NCBI GenBank assembly: GCA_041662585.1
Contig: JBAZSG010000005.1
Span: 68,181-132,180 of the forward strand
From: Patescibacteria group bacterium
GTDB taxonomy: Bacteria > Patescibacteriota > Patescibacteriia > UBA1558 > GWA2-36-10
Direction of reading: 5' to 3'
DNA: 64,000 bases
Both the position numbers and the translations under genes were made by a program. Of the stretch, positions 3,146 to 35,447 are shown one piece after another. Under the pieces are notes generated by a model. The model made no database searches, was not told where the DNA came from, and saw only the letters and a list, made by a program, of their open reading frames with translations. Within the stretch, counting starts at the first letter, position 1. The number at the start of each line of letters is the position of its first letter.

Positions 3146-3829
3146 ATGAGCATTCAAAATCTTACTTTAATAGTTGCTGGGGCTATCAATCTGATAATGA
3201 GCATTCTGGTTTTTTCCAGAGGTGTCAGACACAGCAAAATCAATCTTTATTTTAGTTTTTTAACTTTTTTTAATTTTTTGTGGGCGATTGGTTTATGGTT
3301 ATCTAGATCATTTACAGATTTAGATTTAACATCTATTTTTGCTAGAAGTACATATGTATCAGCCATAGCTATTGTTATTTCTCTTTTATATTTTGTAGTG
3401 CACTTCCCTAATAAAATAAAAGTATTATCAATTAAATTAAAATTTATCGTTTGGTTACCAGCAATTTTTTTAGTATTTATAATATATTCAAAATTATTTA
3501 TTACGCATTTTGTTAATAGCTATAGTGAATATGAATATATAAGTTATTTTTATAAACCATTTTATTGGGTCTATTTTGTTTATTTTATTTCAATTGCTTT
3601 ATTATCTCTTTATTTTTTGTGGCAAAAATATAAAGTAGTTGAAGGATTATTTAAAAAACAGGTGAAATTTTTATTTTTAGCTATTTTAGTAGCTTTTATT
3701 TTTGGAGTTCATTTTGATTTATTTTTATTATATTTTGGTGATTTTAGATTTAATTGGCTTGGACCAATATTCACAGTATTTATTAATGCTTGTGTTTTTT
3801 ATTTCATATTTCCTAAACAAGAAAAGTAA
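3146..3829 (+). CDS. Standalone 7TM membrane protein, tandem paralog of 2460..3140
   Basis: 227 aa. MSIQNLTLIVAGAINLIMSILVFSRG.. and shared FSLLTFFNFLWAI motif. Confidence 0.65.
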   Translation: MSIQNLTLIVAGAINLIMSILVFSRGVRHSKINLYFSFLTFFNFLWAIGLWLSRSFTDLDLTSIFARSTYVSAIAIVISLLYFVVHFPNKIKVLSIKLKFIVWLPAIFLVFIIYSKLFITHFVNSYSEYEYISYFYKPFYWVYFVYFISIALLSLYFLWQKYKVVEGLFKKQVKFLFLAILVAFIFGVHFDLFLLYFGDFRFNWLGPIFTVFINACVFYFIFPKQEK

Positions 3830-3832
3830 TTT

Positions 3833-4816
3833 ATGCCTAAAAATAATAAAAAAATATTTTTGTTTTTAGCCGGAGGTACTTGTATTTTTACAGAAGCTGG
3901 GCATATTTTTTCTGTAAAATCTCAAGATGATATTGAAGATTGGCTGGCTCAGATGCCGGAGTTGAATATTTTGGCTGATATTGAGCCAGTGTTTATCAGT
4001 GGTGAAGACGATTTGATTGGTCCAAATATTTGGCAGACAATAGCCAAGGAGATTATCAAAAGATCTGAAGAAGCCGATGGTTTTGTAATAGTGTCCAAGA
4101 TAGATCAGTTGATAAATACTTCTTTGGCACTGACTTTTGCTTTACAAAATTTGAAAAAAACCATAATTACCACCACCTCCAGAATCAGTGGCAGTAATTT
4201 TATTGATAAAAAAGAAGTTATCAGTAACCTCAAAAATAAATATGGCGGACTTAGTCTCAGATCCAATCTTATCAATGCTATTCAAGTGGCTCAGCAACCA
4301 TTGCCTGCTCCAGCTATTATGTTTGGTACGCGGTTGATAGCAGCTACTAGAGCCATTTTTGATCCACTAGGAGATGTCAATGTTTTTTCCAGTATCAGTG
4401 ATTGTTGGGGTAAGGTTGATTTTGGTATTAATGTCAAATCAAACTTGAAATATAATCAACAAAAAGCCAAAATTTATTCAGACAAATTGGCTGATATTTT
4501 GGTTTTTGATGATATACCAGGCGTACCGTGGTCTTTTGACAGACGAGCACTCACTGCTTATCGTGGTATATTTATCAAAGTAGATTCTTATCAAAAATTG
4601 GGAAAAAACAAGCAAGAGCAAATTATCAAGTGGAAAATGCCAATAGTCTTATATAATTATCACCTGACATCAACTAGTAAGGGAGCAATCAGTGTGTCAA
4701 ATTGTACATTCAATACAGCTCTCATCAAAACAATGTGGGCCTTGAGCAATGAATTCAATAAAAAGGATTTTGAAAATATAATGACCCAAAATATTATTGA
4801 AGAATTTTTAAATTAA
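3833..4816 (+). CDS. Asparaginase/glutaminase-fold protein, probably catalytically degenerate
   Basis: N-terminus IFLFLAGGTCIF aligns to the asparaginase hhxTGGTIA motif. DGFVIVSKIDQLINTSLALTFAL aligns to the GVVITHGTDTLEETAYFL region, but the HGTDT threonine is replaced (SKIDQ). Confidence 0.45.
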   Translation: MPKNNKKIFLFLAGGTCIFTEAGHIFSVKSQDDIEDWLAQMPELNILADIEPVFISGEDDLIGPNIWQTIAKEIIKRSEEADGFVIVSKIDQLINTSLALTFALQNLKKTIITTTSRISGSNFIDKKEVISNLKNKYGGLSLRSNLINAIQVAQQPLPAPAIMFGTRLIAATRAIFDPLGDVNVFSSISDCWGKVDFGINVKSNLKYNQQKAKIYSDKLADILVFDDIPGVPWSFDRRALTAYRGIFIKVDSYQKLGKNKQEQIIKWKMPIVLYNYHLTSTSKGAISVSNCTFNTALIKTMWALSNEFNKKDFENIMTQNIIEEFLN

Positions 4817-7342: not shown

Positions 7343-8191
7343 ATGCAAATAAATTTACCAAACATTGATCCAATTATCGTTTCTAGAGAAATACAAAATT
7401 TTATTATTCAACAGATTTTATCAGCAGGGAAGTCTGGTGGAGTGATTGGTTTAAGTGGTGGTATAGACTCCACTACTGTTGCTTATTTAGCAAAACAGGC
7501 TTTTGATAGTTATAATCAAAAACACAATAAAATAAAATTAAATTTATTTGGATTAATCATGCCATCTAAATCAAATAGTATAGAAGATGCAAAAGATGGA
7601 ATTAGAATAGCTAAAAATCTTGGAATTGATTATAGAGAAATAGCTATTGAATCTCTAGTAAGTAGTTTTACTAAGTTAATCCCAGATATTATTAGGGATG
7701 ATTATGATAAGGGTAATCTTCGTAGTGAAAGTAGGGCTATTATATTATCTAGAGTGGCCGCTGCAAAAAATAGTTTAATTTTAGGTACTGGTAATAGGGA
7801 TGAGGATTATTGTTTGGGTTATTTTACTAAGAGAGGCGATGGGCAAGTTGATATTAGTCCTATAGGGGATATTTCTAAAAGACATGTTAAAGAATTAGCT
7901 TCTTATTTAGGTGTACCAAAAGAATTAGTTGAACGCACTCCAACCGCTGGATTATGGCCAGGCCAAACTGATGAAAAAGAGTTGGGATTTAGTTATTTAG
8001 AAGCAGAAACGGTTATTGAGGGTAGGGATCAAGGTTTGAGTAGACAAGACATACAGAATATTACTAATTTTGGTTATGTGAGAAAAAAGAAGGAGGAAAA
8101 AATTTTTATTGTAGATAAAATATTAAACATGCATGAAATTAATAAATATAAATTACAAATGCCACCAGTGCCAAAGGTGACTAAATATTGA
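7343..8191 (+). CDS. nadE: NH3-dependent NAD+ synthetase
   Basis: PP-loop GLSGGIDSTTVAYLA; length 282 aa. Confidence 0.9.
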   Translation: MQINLPNIDPIIVSREIQNFIIQQILSAGKSGGVIGLSGGIDSTTVAYLAKQAFDSYNQKHNKIKLNLFGLIMPSKSNSIEDAKDGIRIAKNLGIDYREIAIESLVSSFTKLIPDIIRDDYDKGNLRSESRAIILSRVAAAKNSLILGTGNRDEDYCLGYFTKRGDGQVDISPIGDISKRHVKELASYLGVPKELVERTPTAGLWPGQTDEKELGFSYLEAETVIEGRDQGLSRQDIQNITNFGYVRKKKEEKIFIVDKILNMHEINKYKLQMPPVPKVTKY

Positions 8192-27293: not shown

Positions 27294-28259
27294 ATGACAG
27301 AATATCAGCACACCAGCGTGCTTAAAGATGAGCTGATAGCTTTACTGACACCACAGAGCAATCAGAATTATATTGATCTTACTTTGGGAGGAGGGGGACA
27401 CAGCAAAGCCATATTGGAGCATACAGGACCAAAGGGAAAAGTATTGGCTTTTGAGATGGATGGTCGTGCTATAAGAGCTGCCAAAGGTAATCTAAAAGAA
27501 TATAAAGACAGATTGATTATTGTAAATAGTTCTTATATAAATTTAGAATCAGAAGTTAAAAAACATAAGATTGAAGATATAGCAGGTATAGTAGCAGATT
27601 TAGGACTGTCGTCTGACCAATTGGATAAAGCGGATAGAGGCTTTTCATTTAAGGATCATGGATCACTGGACATGAGGTTTGATCCAAATGGTCAGACGCT
27701 TACTGCTTCAGATATAGTCATAGATTGGACTGAAGCACAAATTTTAAAAATATTTCGTGAGTATGGTGAAGTAAAACAGGCCCAGCGCCTGGCCAAAGGA
27801 CTTGTCTCTTGGCGAAAAAACTTGGACAAACAAAAACAAAAATCCATAAAAACTTCCATGCTTGTCGGCGCCATACTCCGAATATTGAATATCAAAGAAA
27901 CAAGTTTAAAAAGATTTCGTATTCATCCAGCTACCCAAGTATTTCAAGCACTTCGTATTGCCGTAAATGATGAATTGGGTAATTTAAAAAAAGTTTTGCC
28001 ACAAGCTTATAATATACTATCTCCAGGCGGGCGCTTGGCAGTAATCAGTTTTCATTCTCTTGAAGATCGTATCGTCAAACATTATTTCAAGGAAATGTCC
28101 AAAGGATGTATTTGCCCGCCAGAGATTCCGGTATGTAGATGTGGAAATAAAGCAAAAATAAGATTGATTACTAAAAAAGCTATCAAACCAAGTAAAGAAG
28201 AGATAGTCAAAAATTTTCGTAGTCGTAGCGCCATACTTAGAGTAATAGAAAAAATTTAA
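27294..28259 (+). CDS. rsmH: 16S rRNA (cytosine1402-N4)-methyltransferase
   Basis: TLGGGGHS SAM-binding motif; follows mraZ. Confidence 0.9.
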   Translation: MTEYQHTSVLKDELIALLTPQSNQNYIDLTLGGGGHSKAILEHTGPKGKVLAFEMDGRAIRAAKGNLKEYKDRLIIVNSSYINLESEVKKHKIEDIAGIVADLGLSSDQLDKADRGFSFKDHGSLDMRFDPNGQTLTASDIVIDWTEAQILKIFREYGEVKQAQRLAKGLVSWRKNLDKQKQKSIKTSMLVGAILRILNIKETSLKRFRIHPATQVFQALRIAVNDELGNLKKVLPQAYNILSPGGRLAVISFHSLEDRIVKHYFKEMSKGCICPPEIPVCRCGNKAKIRLITKKAIKPSKEEIVKNFRSRSAILRVIEKI

Positions 28260-31999: not shown

Positions 32000-33058
32000 T
32001 TAATTGGTATTATTTATAATTTCGGCTGTAGCTTTAGCTGCTTTGTAAACTCCTTGTTTGTTCCAATGGGTGTCATCAATATGGTAAAGATTCTCATCAT
32101 TTTGATAAGCCTCTTCAAAAGATGTATAAATATCTATGACTTTTATTCCTTCGGAGCTTAAGCTATCAATCAACAATGGTACAAAATTTGATTTTTTCTC
32201 CTGTGGTATTAGATCGTGGTAGATGTCTCTCTTATTTGGTATTGGTAAAAATATAAATTCTATTTCATGAGAAGTGAAATAATCATTGTATTTTTTTATA
32301 ATGTTAGTTGCTTTAGCTACATCAGAATCTAGTTTACGATAGTAATCATATTTTAATTTTAAAAATAGAACATCATTATTTACAAATCCAATTTCAGGTA
32401 TCGTCTCTTCATTAAAAAATTTATTTACAGTTCTTTGAAAGGCACTATTTATATAATTTATCATTCTAAATTTTAATAACTTATCAAGCTTTATAATAAT
32501 ATTTTTTATAATATTATTTTCCTTTAAACGTTCTTTTAGGCCATATTTAGGAGATATTTTGGTGTCTATATCTGGTAAAATTCTAATACTTGCCATTATT
32601 ACTCTTTTTGGTGGATTGTTTACAAATCTTCTATCCAATAAATAATCATTAATATTTGCTTGACCCATGGAATAAACGTCTCCATCTATCATATCTTCCA
32701 AAACTTCAGTAAAAGTATCTTTTTGGTCAAGAGTTGCTCCCGCTATATTACTATCTCCAAGTACTAAGGTTTCATGACCCTTGTTTTCATAATTTCTATA
32801 ACCATACTTATCAGTGATCCATTCTACTTCTTTAGCAATTGCGTATTTACTATCATGTCCTAGATTACCTTCCTCTAATTTATTTATTCTAACACTAGGA
32901 TAAAATGGGCCTATTCTAAGATTATCAAATCTGTTGTAGGAAACAATTTCCCAAGTACGAAACGTAAAATATTCTTCTGGCAAAATATACAAATCAATAA
33001 ATGCCAAAGCAATAAATGGTAATGTAAAAATTATTAATTTTAACCAAAATAATTTCAT
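32000..33058 (-). CDS. SGNH/GDSL-fold O-acyltransferase partner (AlgJ/DltD/PatB-like), membrane-anchored
   Basis: N-terminal signal anchor; LVLGDSNIAG GDS motif. Immediately downstream of the MBOAT gene. Confidence 0.6.
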   Translation of the reverse strand: MKLFWLKLIIFTLPFIALAFIDLYILPEEYFTFRTWEIVSYNRFDNLRIGPFYPSVRINKLEEGNLGHDSKYAIAKEVEWITDKYGYRNYENKGHETLVLGDSNIAGATLDQKDTFTEVLEDMIDGDVYSMGQANINDYLLDRRFVNNPPKRVIMASIRILPDIDTKISPKYGLKERLKENNIIKNIIIKLDKLLKFRMINYINSAFQRTVNKFFNEETIPEIGFVNNDVLFLKLKYDYYRKLDSDVAKATNIIKKYNDYFTSHEIEFIFLPIPNKRDIYHDLIPQEKKSNFVPLLIDSLSSEGIKVIDIYTSFEEAYQNDENLYHIDDTHWNKQGVYKAAKATAEIINNTN

Positions 33059-33063
33059 AGTTA

Positions 33064-34521
33064 CTAAAATTGAAAATATATAAATTCGTGACTAGAAAAA
33101 TTACCGCATAATAGTATGCTAAATAAAAGTAAAAAATAAATAAAAAATCTAAAATAAACCGGTCTATTTGATAACATATGTCTAATACTATCATGTCGTT
33201 GATATAAATGAACAAATTCTAAAGATAAAATACCAAATAAACTTACTACAAAAACATAAGGAGAAGCCAAGAAAAATGCTGAACGAAGATAACCGAAATC
33301 TACGAAGCCATGCCAATTAAATAAATTTCTTACTATATAAAAAGCATCTGATATATTTTTAGCTCGAAAAAATATCCAAGCGAAAGTTACTAAAGAAAAT
33401 GTGGTTAGTATTTGTAAATATTTATTTAAACGGGGGAAGTGCTTTAGTTTTATAAATAGTACAATTTTTTCTCTAATATTTTTGCTCAATAATGAAAAAA
33501 TCATATAGAAAGCATGTAATGCCCCCCATACTACAAATGTCCAGTTTGCGCCGTGCCATAAACCGCTAATCAAAAAAGTTATAAATAAATTAAAATGTAA
33601 ACGTGATATAGAAACTCTATTACCCCCCAAACTTATATATAAATAATCTTTAAACCAAGAAGATAATGAAATATGCCACCTTTTCCAAAACTCCGAAATC
33701 GATTTGGAATAGTAAGGTCTTTTAAAATTATCCATTAGTTTAAAACCCATTACTTGACTAGCACCAATGGCAATATCAGAGTATCCTGAAAAATCACAGT
33801 ATATCTGAAAAGCGAAAAATATAGTAGCAATAATTAATGACAAACCAGTATACATTTCGGGGTTGTTATATACTAGATCAACATATATCGCTAAATTATC
33901 AGCTATGACTATTTTTTTAAAAAACCCCCAAAGCATCAATTTAAGTCCGTCAGTAACTCTAGCATAGTCAAAATAATGTTTTTTTAAAAATTGGGGTAAT
34001 AAATTTTGGGCACGCTCAATGGGGCCTGCTACTAGTTGTGGGAAAAAGGATACATAAAGAGAAAAAATGCCCAAATGTTTTTCTGGCTTAATTTTATTTC
34101 TATAGACATCAATAGTATATCCTAGGGTTTGAAAAGTATAAAATGATATGCCTACTGGCAATAATATTTTTAAAACTGGTGGTGAAAATTGAATGCTAAA
34201 ATTAGATAAAATGATCCGCAAGGAATCGCTTACAAAGTTAAAATATTTAAAAGCAAATAATAGACCAATATTAATTAATATACTAATTAATAATAAAAAA
34301 GTTTTTGTTTTTTTATCATCTTCTTTAGCAATTGCCAAAGCCACGAAATAATCAAGTAAAGTAGAAAATATTATCAAAATAATATATTCTGCTTTCCAAC
34401 TCATGTAAAAATAATAACTAGCTAGCAACAATAATATCCAACGATGTTTATGTTTTAAAGAAAAATATAAAACAATAATTATTGGAAAAAATATTAAAAA
34501 ATGTATGGAGTTAAATAGCAT
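33064..34521 (-). CDS. MBOAT-family membrane-bound O-acyltransferase (AlgI/DltB/PatA-like)
   Basis: FWKRWHISLSSWFKDYLYISLGGNR matches the MBOAT catalytic His motif; multi-TM, 485 aa. Confidence 0.85.
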   Translation of the reverse strand: MLFNSIHFLIFFPIIIVLYFSLKHKHRWILLLLASYYFYMSWKAEYIILIIFSTLLDYFVALAIAKEDDKKTKTFLLLISILINIGLLFAFKYFNFVSDSLRIILSNFSIQFSPPVLKILLPVGISFYTFQTLGYTIDVYRNKIKPEKHLGIFSLYVSFFPQLVAGPIERAQNLLPQFLKKHYFDYARVTDGLKLMLWGFFKKIVIADNLAIYVDLVYNNPEMYTGLSLIIATIFFAFQIYCDFSGYSDIAIGASQVMGFKLMDNFKRPYYSKSISEFWKRWHISLSSWFKDYLYISLGGNRVSISRLHFNLFITFLISGLWHGANWTFVVWGALHAFYMIFSLLSKNIREKIVLFIKLKHFPRLNKYLQILTTFSLVTFAWIFFRAKNISDAFYIVRNLFNWHGFVDFGYLRSAFFLASPYVFVVSLFGILSLEFVHLYQRHDSIRHMLSNRPVYFRFFIYFLLLFSILLCGNFSSHEFIYFQF

Positions 34522-34712: not shown

Positions 34713-34955
34713 TTAGTTTTTAGGAGCCAGAGCTTTGATCTGTGCCATAATGTCTGGAGGCACGGATAGTAGTATGGATTTTTCGTTAATGCGACGAGAT
34801 ACGCTTTGTCTGCCACGGTAAAGCATAAAGCCAATGTGACAGACATCTTGTGGATGGATGATCAGCAAGGCTGATTCTTGGCTGTGAGTTATCAGGCATT
34901 TGCCGTCAGCAAAAGCAATAGAATCAATATTGCTACAAGGTTTATAATCGCACAT
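34713..34955 (-). CDS. Hypothetical small protein
   Basis: 80 aa. AGGAG 8 nt upstream of the ATG. A hairpin with a U-run (34992-35025) lies just upstream of its SD. Confidence 0.5.
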   Translation of the reverse strand: MCDYKPCSNIDSIAFADGKCLITHSQESALLIIHPQDVCHIGFMLYRGRQSVSRRINEKSILLSVPPDIMAQIKALAPKN

Positions 34956-35214
34956 AATTGTAACTCCTATGGTTGTTTGGTGGAAAGAACTTATTATCTA
35001 TATGAAAAACACTGACTAGCTAATGGTCAGTGTTTTAATTTTTAAGTAAAAAAATATTAGACCATCAGCAATTTAAGATAGTTTTTCTTATCCTTAGATA
35101 TAATGTTTATTCTGATTGTTTGTTTGTCTAACATAAATAGTATTATAGCAAAGTGAAATAAAATGTCAAAATTAAATTTTGGGTTATTGTCTATATGAAT
35201 TTGTAGATAAAGGA

Positions 35215-35241
35215 AAAAGCCGAACGTGGTTCGGCTTTTTT
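35215..35241. terminator. Bidirectional rho-independent terminator
   Basis: AAAAAGCCGAAC-gtg-GTTCGGCTTTTTT. Confidence 0.75.
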
Positions 35242-35275
35242 GGTGACTGGGGTTGGAACTTGGGGAGGAGGGAGC

Positions 35276-35365
35276 TTACTTAGGAGCGTAAGCCACGAAC
35301 ATGGCAATCAATACGACTGCCACAGTAGCCATCGCCAAAGAGCGATAAAAGAATCCTTTGGACAT
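35276..35365 (-). CDS. 29-aa hydrophobic small membrane peptide (MSKGFFYRSLAMATVAVVLIAMFVAYAPK)
   Basis: Not in the ORF track because it is under the track's length cutoff. Perfect SD AAGGAGGA 5 nt from the ATG. Own promoter TTGACA-17-TATAGT upstream and terminator downstream. Local GC is elevated. Confidence 0.55.
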   Translation of the reverse strand: MSKGFFYRSLAMATVAVVLIAMFVAYAPK

Positions 35366-35418
35366 TTTTGTCCTCCTTTTGTAGTCTTTCATGATTATTG
35401 AACATTTAGATTAAAGAT

Positions 35419-35447
35419 ACTATAGCATATAATAAAAAATTTGTCAA
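35419..35447 (-). promoter_or_regulatory. Sigma70-type promoter (TTGACA-17-TATAGT) for the 29-aa peptide gene
   Basis: Minus-strand -35 at 35447-35442, 17-nt spacer, -10 at 35424-35419. It is divergent from the rplU promoter (TTGACA 35473-78, TAATAT 35496-501). Confidence 0.55.

Follow-up and report, generated by a model that had tools for sequence, protein, structure and literature searches.

How does a tiny hydrophobic open reading frame (ORF) come to own a complete set of strong expression signals, and what does it produce? This question is raised by a 29-codon unit on the minus strand of a 64,000-nucleotide (nt) stretch of contig JBAZSG010000005.1 (positions 68,181 to 132,180) from a Patescibacteria group bacterium, hereafter called the window. 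The first-pass annotation had likened the unit to type I toxins or small membrane regulatory peptides. Comparison with related lineages indicates that the unit is very probably the signal-anchor stub of a truncated gene, g1, a label given here to a Komeilibacteria-specific family of signal-anchored proteins. The reading that we favor, at a probability of about 0.45, is that the stub gives a structured mini-mRNA yielding a 29-amino-acid (aa) single-pass membrane peptide with its N terminus inside.

The promoter, 5' untranslated region (UTR), Shine-Dalgarno sequence (SD), ORF, and terminator ascribed to the unit were all present at the described positions on the minus strand (Table 1), and the locus is a self-contained, strongly signaled transcription unit for a small hydrophobic ORF. 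The minus strand of the promoter reads TTGACA, 17 nt, and TGcTATAGT (35447..35419). The peptide MSKGFFYRSLAMATVAVVLIAMFVAYAPK has a basic N-terminal end, a hydrophobic core of 17 residues, and an AYA-PK tail. An in-frame upstream ATG at 35392 would give a 38-aa alternative without an SD. The terminator hairpin, AAAAAGCCGAACCACGTTCGGCTTTTT (35240..35214), has symmetric flanks and is therefore potentially bidirectional. The unit is single-copy within the window, and its GC content of 0.49 to 0.52 exceeds that of the flanking intergenic DNA (0.18 to 0.25), as had been observed. On the source contig, the gene caller did not call the 29-codon ORF, which annotation had thus indeed missed, and called its 80-aa neighbor.

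The SD was likewise confirmed as the strongest in an SD-poor window. Its pairing energy was -11.6 kcal/mol, a level reached by about 0.1% of random 18-mers. The earlier statement that most genes lack an SD also held, because only 2% of the first-ATG starts of 51 long ORFs reached -6 kcal/mol, compared with 4.3% of random 18-mers. These energies were scored against the canonical anti-SD, which is an assumption, the 16S rRNA of the organism lying outside the window. The sole other AAGGAGGA in the window, at 8090 on the plus strand, lies within an apparent Lys/Glu-rich coding sequence and was rejected as a sister unit for that reason.

Searches for known families gave no assignment. The peptide had no matches in a phmmer search against 1.84 billion cluster representatives and nothing in Pfam, NCBIfam, PHROGs, PADLOC, or PDB; a look-up of the exact product and a metagenome scan with the peptide alignment or back-translated patterns were also empty. 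The homology search proposed for the small protein thus returned no homologue in any of these libraries. Rfam 15, at gathering and permissive thresholds, and ARAGORN showed no family, tRNA, or tmRNA at the GC-rich patch, and a structured RNA gene of the tmRNA, RNase P, or 6S kind was rejected as its cause. The Rfam matches at the unit were all below threshold and were driven by the terminator hairpin.

The origin of the unit was instead indicated by synteny with diverged relatives. The ribosomal protein L21 encoded by rplU beside the unit was found on three metagenome contigs from different samples, and the locus was 100% identical in all of them. The nearest reference genomes by L21 were Candidatus Komeilibacteria and other Patescibacteria metagenome-assembled genomes, with identities of 72 to 84%. 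The window itself belongs to a Candidatus Komeilibacteria genome of the candidate phyla radiation. A weak tblastn match pointed to one Komeilibacteria genome (L006; L21 identity, 75%), in which a very similar promoter, TTGACA...TATGTTATACT, followed by a similar leader and SD and divergent from rplU, precedes a 122-aa ORF starting with MRKWIFASILMIVLIALVAAYSPQPQDIPGIGDD. This ORF is a full-length g1, and a promoter of the form TTGACA...TATGCTATA(C/G)T stands upstream of full-length g1 in both L006 and L064. The g1 proteins are 122 aa (L006), 121 aa (L065/L066), 117 aa (L011), and 137 aa (L064) in length. The 137-aa protein was matched to the profile of the other g1 proteins with an hhalign probability of 90.5% (E = 1.3e-6). 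The exported domain of the family carries the motifs DIPGxGD...NPSPQxC.LE...TVRHR, and the family had no match in Pfam, NCBIfam, PHROGs, or PADLOC. In L006 and L011, whose contigs extend far enough to show it, the g1 slot and rplU are divergently oriented; in L065 and L064, the slot lies upstream of the g2, leader, and 80-aa genes.

The same slot and its surroundings could be followed across lineages by the 80-aa neighbor, which served as an anchor and whose homologues showed 83% (L063), 75% (L064), and 37 to 41% (L006, L065, and L067) identity. In L006, L065, and L064, the gene order is g1, g2 (an 83- to 92-aa transmembrane [TM] protein), a conserved leader, and the 80-aa gene. In the window and in L063, the order is the 29-codon ORF, the terminator, the leader, and the 80-aa gene. 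The sequences flanking the ORF were alignable to those of full-length g1 on both sides. The alignment of the promoter and 5'UTR gave z scores of 6.4 against L064 and 3.0 against L006, and that of the C-rich 3'UTR, the terminator, and the following bases gave 6.0 and 4.7, respectively. The hairpin core CCGAACCACGTTCGG is common to the terminator of the unit and that of the 137-aa gene of L064. The peptide itself was aligned to the TM end of the g1 profile (VVLIAMFVAYAPK against IVLIALVAAYSPQ) over 13 residues with 54% identity (E = 0.004 to 0.006), a match that would carry little weight by itself and convinces only in combination with the flanks. In both g1 and the unit, the homologous hydrophobic N-terminal segment ends in A-Y-(A/S)-P. 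No trace of the g1 exported domain was found in the 64-kb window by tblastn with the L006 and L064 proteins. The L063 locus keeps, as the window does, only the first 28 or so g1 codons, which encode the membrane anchor, followed by TAA, the 3'UTR, and the terminator. A second metagenome scan for further stub-bearing lineages with the 80-aa anchor returned the L006 lineage only, and a profile protein search added L065/L066 and L067, all full-length or cut.

These comparisons indicate that the unit is a truncated derivative of g1 rather than a member of the family or a small gene that arose de novo, because the ORF ends at codon 29 and the exported domain was not found in the window. It shares with g1 the slot and orientation where these can be seen, a homologous promoter, 5'UTR, and SD, the C-rich 3'UTR, and the CCGAACCACGTTCGG terminator. 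It differs from g1 in lacking the exported domain, in ending after 29 codons, and in having three mRNA hairpins that the long genes lack. The stub state is derived, since L064 is the outgroup to the window and L063 by the 80-aa protein and is full-length. An internal deletion in the common ancestor of the window and L063 very probably removed about 300 nt encoding the exported domain and joined approximately codon 28 to the gene's own C-rich 3'UTR, in which a TAA now closes the frame. Comparative sequence shows these steps, and the exact position of the junction is an estimate. The promoter, 5'UTR, SD, 3'UTR, and terminator were all inherited from g1, which accounts for the perfect stand-alone appearance of the stub. 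The second gene, g2, was also lost in the window and L063, save for its 3' end (the last 20 or so codons).

Next, we examined the RNA. The predicted transcript has a folding energy of -57.7 kcal/mol (z = -4.7), and without the terminator the z scores were -2.5 in the window and -3.6 in L063. Three hairpins, A, B, and C, lie within or across the end of the ORF (Table 1). In L063, one pair of hairpin B has changed on both sides in a compensatory manner (A-U to G-C) and three have changed on one side only; in hairpin C, there is likewise one compensatory double change (G-C to A-U), along with a single one-sided change. The consensus fold of the window and L063 has 48 pairs with none broken, 2 double compensatory changes, and 10 one-sided changes. 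Because RNAalifold favors consistent structures, the test was repeated with the structure predicted from the window alone and a null in which the same substitutions were randomly placed at the same codon positions. L063 broke 2 of the 28 pairs of this structure, compared with a null mean of 6.2 (P of 2 or fewer = 0.006), and retained -24.4 of -30.5 kcal/mol, compared with -7.3 +/- 6.6 kcal/mol in the null (P = 0.0025). Transition bias was rejected as a signature of RNA structure, the ratio of transitions to transversions being 18:4 in the stub and 21:5 in the neighboring protein gene. The 3' arm of hairpin C does not exist in the full-length relatives, and hairpins A to C are absent from the 5' coding regions of full-length g1 genes (z = -0.4 to -1.9), so the structure would have arisen after the truncation. 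A smaller hairpin, GGACA-AAAA-UGUCC, extends over the AUG and the 3' portion of the SD, and in the ensemble, G residues of the SD pair with C52/C53 at 0.4 to 1.0. This hairpin is weak, and chance could account for it.

The 3'UTR contains a C-tract. Across 128 kb, both strands included, just one other site has a 14-mer with at least 10 C residues; it lies at 27399, inside rsmH, and was rejected as a sister unit. Homologous C-tracts occur in L063, L064, L006, and L065, and the duplex between the C-tract and the SD has an energy of -12.5 kcal/mol. In four of five lineages, no partner of the SD region outranks the 3'UTR of that lineage, which is best or tied for best. For the full-length g1 mRNAs of L064, L006, and L065, folding predicts that the SD core pairs with the C-tract, some 400 nt distant, with probabilities of 0.92 to 0.99; these mRNAs span positions 37 to 548, 3425 to 3886 (minus strand), and 36 to 495, respectively. 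The C-rich motif also tracks the SD flank of its lineage, GGAGUU being accompanied by AACUCC in L006 and L065. In Staphylococcus aureus, a UCCCC motif in the 3'UTR of icaR masks the SD of the same mRNA, a mechanism that involves inhibited formation of the initiation complex and cleavage by RNase III (PMC3868564). The predicted pairing makes the full-length g1 mRNAs candidates for an icaR-like interaction between the 5' and 3' UTRs in bacteria of the candidate phyla radiation (CPR). The comparison suggests that this arrangement is ancestral to the g1 family, which would explain why the stub inherited its C-tract.

The stub mRNA itself resembles icaR in that the C-rich motif of its 3'UTR is complementary to its own SD. 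However, its 3'UTR is about 35 nt, whereas that of icaR is long (>100 nt), and the pairing predicted in silico is weaker in the stub and not significant against shuffles. SD pairing with the C-tract had probabilities of 0.36 to 0.65 in the window and about 0.56 to 0.59 at just two positions in L063. The probability that the SD is unpaired was 0.11 in the window and 0.43 in L063, and controls with shuffled C-tracts were not significant (0.145 and 0.47).

One way to read the RNA evidence is that, after the truncation, the unit became a regulatory or otherwise functional small RNA (sRNA) of about 200 nt whose C-rich, single-stranded 3' region just before the terminator would pair with G-rich, SD-like sequences, as happens in the C-rich-motif sRNAs of Firmicutes, the ORF being incidental or weakly translated. 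The RNA-level signal is statistically the strongest (compensatory changes; p = 0.0025 to 0.006), and hairpin C covers the stop codon and noncoding bases. The near-unique C-tract and a GC content of about 50% in an AT-rich genome, as is typical of structured RNAs, point the same way, and the few SD-bearing genes seen are those of the cluster itself, which would be natural targets. However, no other part of the unit is as poorly conserved between the window and L063 as the C-tract (71% identity, with indels), an unexpected trait in a seed region; the frame, ATG, TAA, optimally spaced SD, and hydrophobicity are all kept; and neither an Rfam match nor a target was identified. We regard this reading as rather unlikely.

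The coding evidence was evaluated with the L063 orthologue, MSKRFFYRFLAIAGVAIILIAMFSTYSPK, which has 29 codons and the same ATG, TAA, and SD as the window. Both the ORF and the flanking gene are kept in L063, rather than the ORF being lost beside conserved flanks. The coding parts differ by 20 substitutions in 87 nt without indels, the 3' spacer (35 to 41 nt) contains 6 gap columns, and identity over the downstream 285 nt is 95%. The 5'UTR is 87% identical; bases near the SD have changed, but none of the 11 nt immediately around it has. The mean Kyte-Doolittle hydropathy of residues 10 to 26 is 2.50 in the window and 2.26 in L063. Nei-Gojobori counts gave 9 synonymous and 11 nonsynonymous changes (dN, 0.186; dS, 0.678; omega, 0.27), and the synonymous excess had a binomial p of 0.026 with this one diverged orthologue. 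In neutral simulations, the ORF was intact in 20 to 32% of the runs, and the ORF was intact with its TM hydrophobicity kept in 3 to 12%. The coding-level evidence for selection is thus suggestive, not decisive, because the dS of the neighbor is only 0.25 and neutral runs often leave the ORF intact. The RNA-level evidence is the stronger of the two, and mainly on its basis the stub is probably still maintained by selection.

These figures bear directly on a second alternative, in which the unit is an expressed relic, a nonfunctional leftover that is still transcribed, and perhaps translated, through spared inherited signals and is too recent to have decayed. Its truncation origin is clear, and g2 was lost from the same locus, so the lineage would be shedding these genes. 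The substitution rate of the stub is close to the neutral rate of the neighbor, a fifth to a third of the neutral runs leave the ORF intact, and the slot beside rplU is hypervariable, being occupied by unrelated genes in L004 and L005. Against a relic, the substitutions are not randomly placed relative to the RNA pairs, new hairpins formed once the gene had been truncated, and there is the synonymous excess. Moreover, the 90 nt of the ORF contain no indels, whereas the adjacent spacer has six gap columns, and the bases around the SD are unchanged amid changes in the rest of the 5'UTR. A relic is improbable to a similar degree as the sRNA.

The favored reading is the translated mini-mRNA. Since the truncation, the stub has not decayed, its 29-codon frame and hydrophobic character being kept, and it has acquired three hairpins that are maintained by compensatory substitutions. 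In this scheme, the unit would still give rise to a stable, structured transcript of about 200 nt, whose translation from the strong SD would produce the 29-aa membrane peptide, a free-standing signal-anchor. Translation and stability would probably be limited or tuned by the structure of the RNA and by its SD-complementary C-tract at the 3' end. Several points weigh against this scheme. The peptide has no homologue elsewhere, neither among the 1.84 billion representatives nor in the five libraries named above. An intact ORF is not improbable under neutrality (0.2 to 0.3), and the divergence of the stub (23%) is close to the synonymous divergence of the neighbor (dS, 0.25), by which yardstick its dN/dS is about 0.75. 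There are only two independent stub sequences, the other three copies being 100% identical, and the power of every selection test is therefore low. Constraint on RNA structure alone, without any peptide, could be the cause of the conservation. The use of an SD in a genome whose genes generally lack one rests on the assumed canonical anti-SD. Finally, the L063 contig begins inside the -10 box, so that its -35 element lies beyond the contig edge.

A stronger form of the translated reading, which we consider decidedly improbable, is that truncation gave birth to a dual-function micro-gene through repurposing of the signal-anchor and both UTRs of a decayed exported-protein gene, combining a structured RNA formed after the deletion with a "signal-peptide-only" peptide of 29 aa. 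The start of the peptide is one of very few SD-led starts in an SD-poor genome. Its AYA-P tail presumably resembles a signal-peptidase site blocked by proline at +1. If this were true, a target of the peptide could be the machinery of secretion or the signal peptidase.

A type I toxin, that is, a membrane-damaging peptide whose synthesis is restrained by folding of its mRNA and by an antisense RNA, is very improbable: the strong promoter and SD, the small hydrophobic single-TM peptide of 29 aa, and the structured mRNA, in which the SD of the window is mostly paired by the local SD/AUG hairpin and the 3' C-tract much as in the SD-sequestering hairpins and folding control of aapA3/IsoA3 (PMC6733600), are offset by predicted SD masking that is weak in L063 and was not significantly altered by shuffling of the C-tract, by the absence of any toxin family match, by descent from a former signal-anchor rather than a dedicated toxin, and by occurrence as a single copy in the window. 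Type I toxins are small hydrophobic membrane proteins, typically under 60 aa. Type I systems are defined by a toxic-protein mRNA together with an antisense RNA antitoxin (T1TAdb, PMC8594479). The antisense RNA suggested for the plus strand was not detected, in that no promoter-like site (at least 9 of 12 matches) on that strand would give an RNA overlapping the ORF, the 5'UTR, or any of 35214-35412, a trans-encoded or atypically promoted RNA being possible; the nearest plus-strand sites (35405 and 35473) fire away from the unit, towards rplU. The likeness noted in the first-pass annotation is thus one of resemblance, in the small hydrophobic peptide, strong signals, and structured mRNA with partial SD occlusion, and not of membership, as the stub is signal-anchor-derived and has neither a detectable antisense RNA gene nor a family match.

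Table 1. Features of the 29-codon unit and of the adjoining downstream region (positions in the window)
Feature	Position	Strand	Remark
Promoter, -35 TTGACA, 17-nt spacer, TG-extended -10 TATAGT	35419..35447	minus	11/12 consensus matches
5'UTR, ~47 nt, carrying the SD	35366..35412	minus	Transcription start placed ~7 nt past the -10 by inference
SD AAGGAGGA	35378..35371	minus	5 nt ahead of the ATG at 35365
Local hairpin GGACA-AAAA-UGUCC over 3' part of SD and AUG	35360..35373	minus	5 pairs, unchanged in L063
ORF, 29 codons plus TAA (35278..35276), peptide MSKGFFYRSLAMATVAVVLIAMFVAYAPK	35276..35365	minus	Orthologue of the g1 signal-anchor
Hairpin A, AUCGCU...GGCGAU, inside ORF	35331..35346	minus	6 pairs; one one-sided change (U-G to U-A) in L063
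Hairpin B, GUGGCAGUCG...UGAUUGCCAU, inside ORF	35301..35323	minus	10 pairs, none broken
Hairpin C, GGCUUAC...GUAAGCU, last codons, TAA, and first 3'UTR bases	35273..35294	minus	7 pairs
C-rich 3'UTR GCUCCCUCCUCCCCAAGUUCCAACCCCAGUCACC, 34 nt	35242..35275	minus	SD-complementary; inherited from the 3'UTR of the full-length gene
Intrinsic terminator AAAAAGCCGAACCACGUUCGGCUUUUU	35214..35240	minus	12-pair stem, A-run before, T-run after
g2 3'-end relic, ...PKFNFDILFHFAIILF in frame	35135..35213	minus	Now only the promoter (35169..35142) of the downstream leader
Neighboring unit: leader ORF 35134..35057, hairpin and T-run 35036..35006, 80-aa orphan gene 34955..34713	34713..35134	minus	

The stub may also be compared with other known kinds of small genes. 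KdpF, AcrZ, MgrB, and CydX are examples of small single-TM membrane proteins. The stub is like such proteins in its size, single hydrophobic helix, basic N-terminal end, and neglect by annotation, but it has no sequence similarity to any of them, is monocistronic with no partner complex beside it, and has a documented truncation origin, and its translation is only predicted. A review covers many bacterial membrane proteins that have a single TM helix and no more than 50 aa (PMC12648545). It has also been described that sRNA genes are made or broken by genome rearrangement (PMC4350180) and that some sRNAs also encode peptides (PMC5521070). The stub resembles these as a short promoter-to-terminator transcript from a structural genome change with possible RNA and peptide roles; it differs from rearrangement sRNAs in that its signals were inherited intact from a protein gene rather than formed de novo. 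Overall, it is an orphan case of a known kind, namely, short rearrangement transcripts, peptide-encoding sRNAs, and small membrane proteins, with an unusually well-documented origin.

The sequence downstream of the stub terminator is explained by the loss of g2. The frame of the ORF stays open for 72 codons after the TAA, which was matched by 0.8% of shuffles. A pseudogene with a single nonsense codon, or stop read-through to a 102-aa product, was rejected, since the product has no homologues and a spacer indel in L063 shifts the downstream stretch out of frame. The stretch is free of stops because ...PKFNFDILFHFAIILF is a relic of the g2 C terminus (...PKIFDNFFAVAIIIIC in L006 and L067), and the relic is conserved because the promoter of the leader lies within it.

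This leader is conserved upstream of the 80-aa gene in all six lineages (window, 34956-35169, minus strand; L063, 250-471; L064, 865-1075; L006, 2832-3075; L065, 806-1052; L067, 50-302). Its promoter is perfect (TTGACA-16-TATAAT) and is followed 6 to 7 nt later by an invariant ATGTTAGAC, like the leaderless start of a 24- to 34-aa ORF. Next come an invariant TTGATGGTCTAA and the hairpin with its T-run, which shows compensatory changes between lineages. The stop of the leader ORF sits in differing frames across lineages, and the motif is therefore conserved as RNA, not as peptide. In addition, UUGAUGGUC could base-pair with the GACCAU(U/C)A that forms part of the hairpin's 5' arm and might act as an antiterminator. 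As a whole, the leader resembles an attenuator of the leader-peptide type, and it had no Rfam matches. The 80-aa orphan protein (34713-34955, minus strand), with homologues in five other lineages, is under strong purifying selection (omega, 0.08 to 0.10 against L064) and has no family in Pfam, NCBIfam, PADLOC, or PHROGs. An assignment of its function from its fold was dropped, the AlphaFold model being unusable (predicted local distance difference test score [pLDDT], 46.7). After the 80-aa gene, a tRNA-like stretch, recognized by eye, lies on the opposite strand in L063 (786-860), L064 (1390-1426), and L067 (670-745), whereas an MBOAT/AlgX-like pair (32000-34521) follows in the window, indicating a local rearrangement beside the cluster.

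The small-gene cluster of g1, g2, and the 80-aa gene (window, 34713-35447, and its equivalents in L006, L064, and L011) had a GC content at third codon positions (GC3) of 0.40 to 0.58 in every lineage, above that of rplU and other housekeeping genes (0.13 to 0.28). The cluster genes also bear SDs although the genome is otherwise SD-poor. High GC and SDs are thus properties of the whole cluster in every lineage and not of the stub alone. A phage or mobile origin of the cluster was rejected, as it had no relatives in IMG/VR and no PHROG matches. Recent transfer is not an obvious explanation, because the cluster is syntenic and without viral relatives. In L004 and L005, the closest reference genomes by L21 (84% and 82% identity, respectively), the minus strand directly upstream of rplU carries unrelated ORFs of 155 aa (3278-3745) and 166 aa (3270-3770) with N-terminal hydrophobic segments. 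The slot divergent from rplU seems to be a turnover hot spot for small exported proteins. Elsewhere in the window, a ribosomal protein L10 leader (RF00557; 21859-21992, plus strand; score, 55.2 bits; gathering score, 44) and ordinary genes for four tRNAs (Glu, Lys, Asn, and Thr) were found, as expected.

Altogether, this locus offers a clean, sequence-documented route by which a perfect-looking stand-alone small gene can come about by internal deletion, not invention. The presence of strong expression signals beside a tiny hydrophobic ORF is not enough to mark it as a toxin or a dedicated small protein, and synteny with diverged relatives can show an origin where homology searches come back empty. 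Such stubs may supply raw material for new small proteins or sRNAs. The compensatory changes and the retention of the frame suggest that this one is already under selection in an uncultivated lineage of the CPR, whose small-protein and RNA biology is essentially unexplored. If its function were confirmed, the stub would be a dated and polarized case of micro-gene birth.

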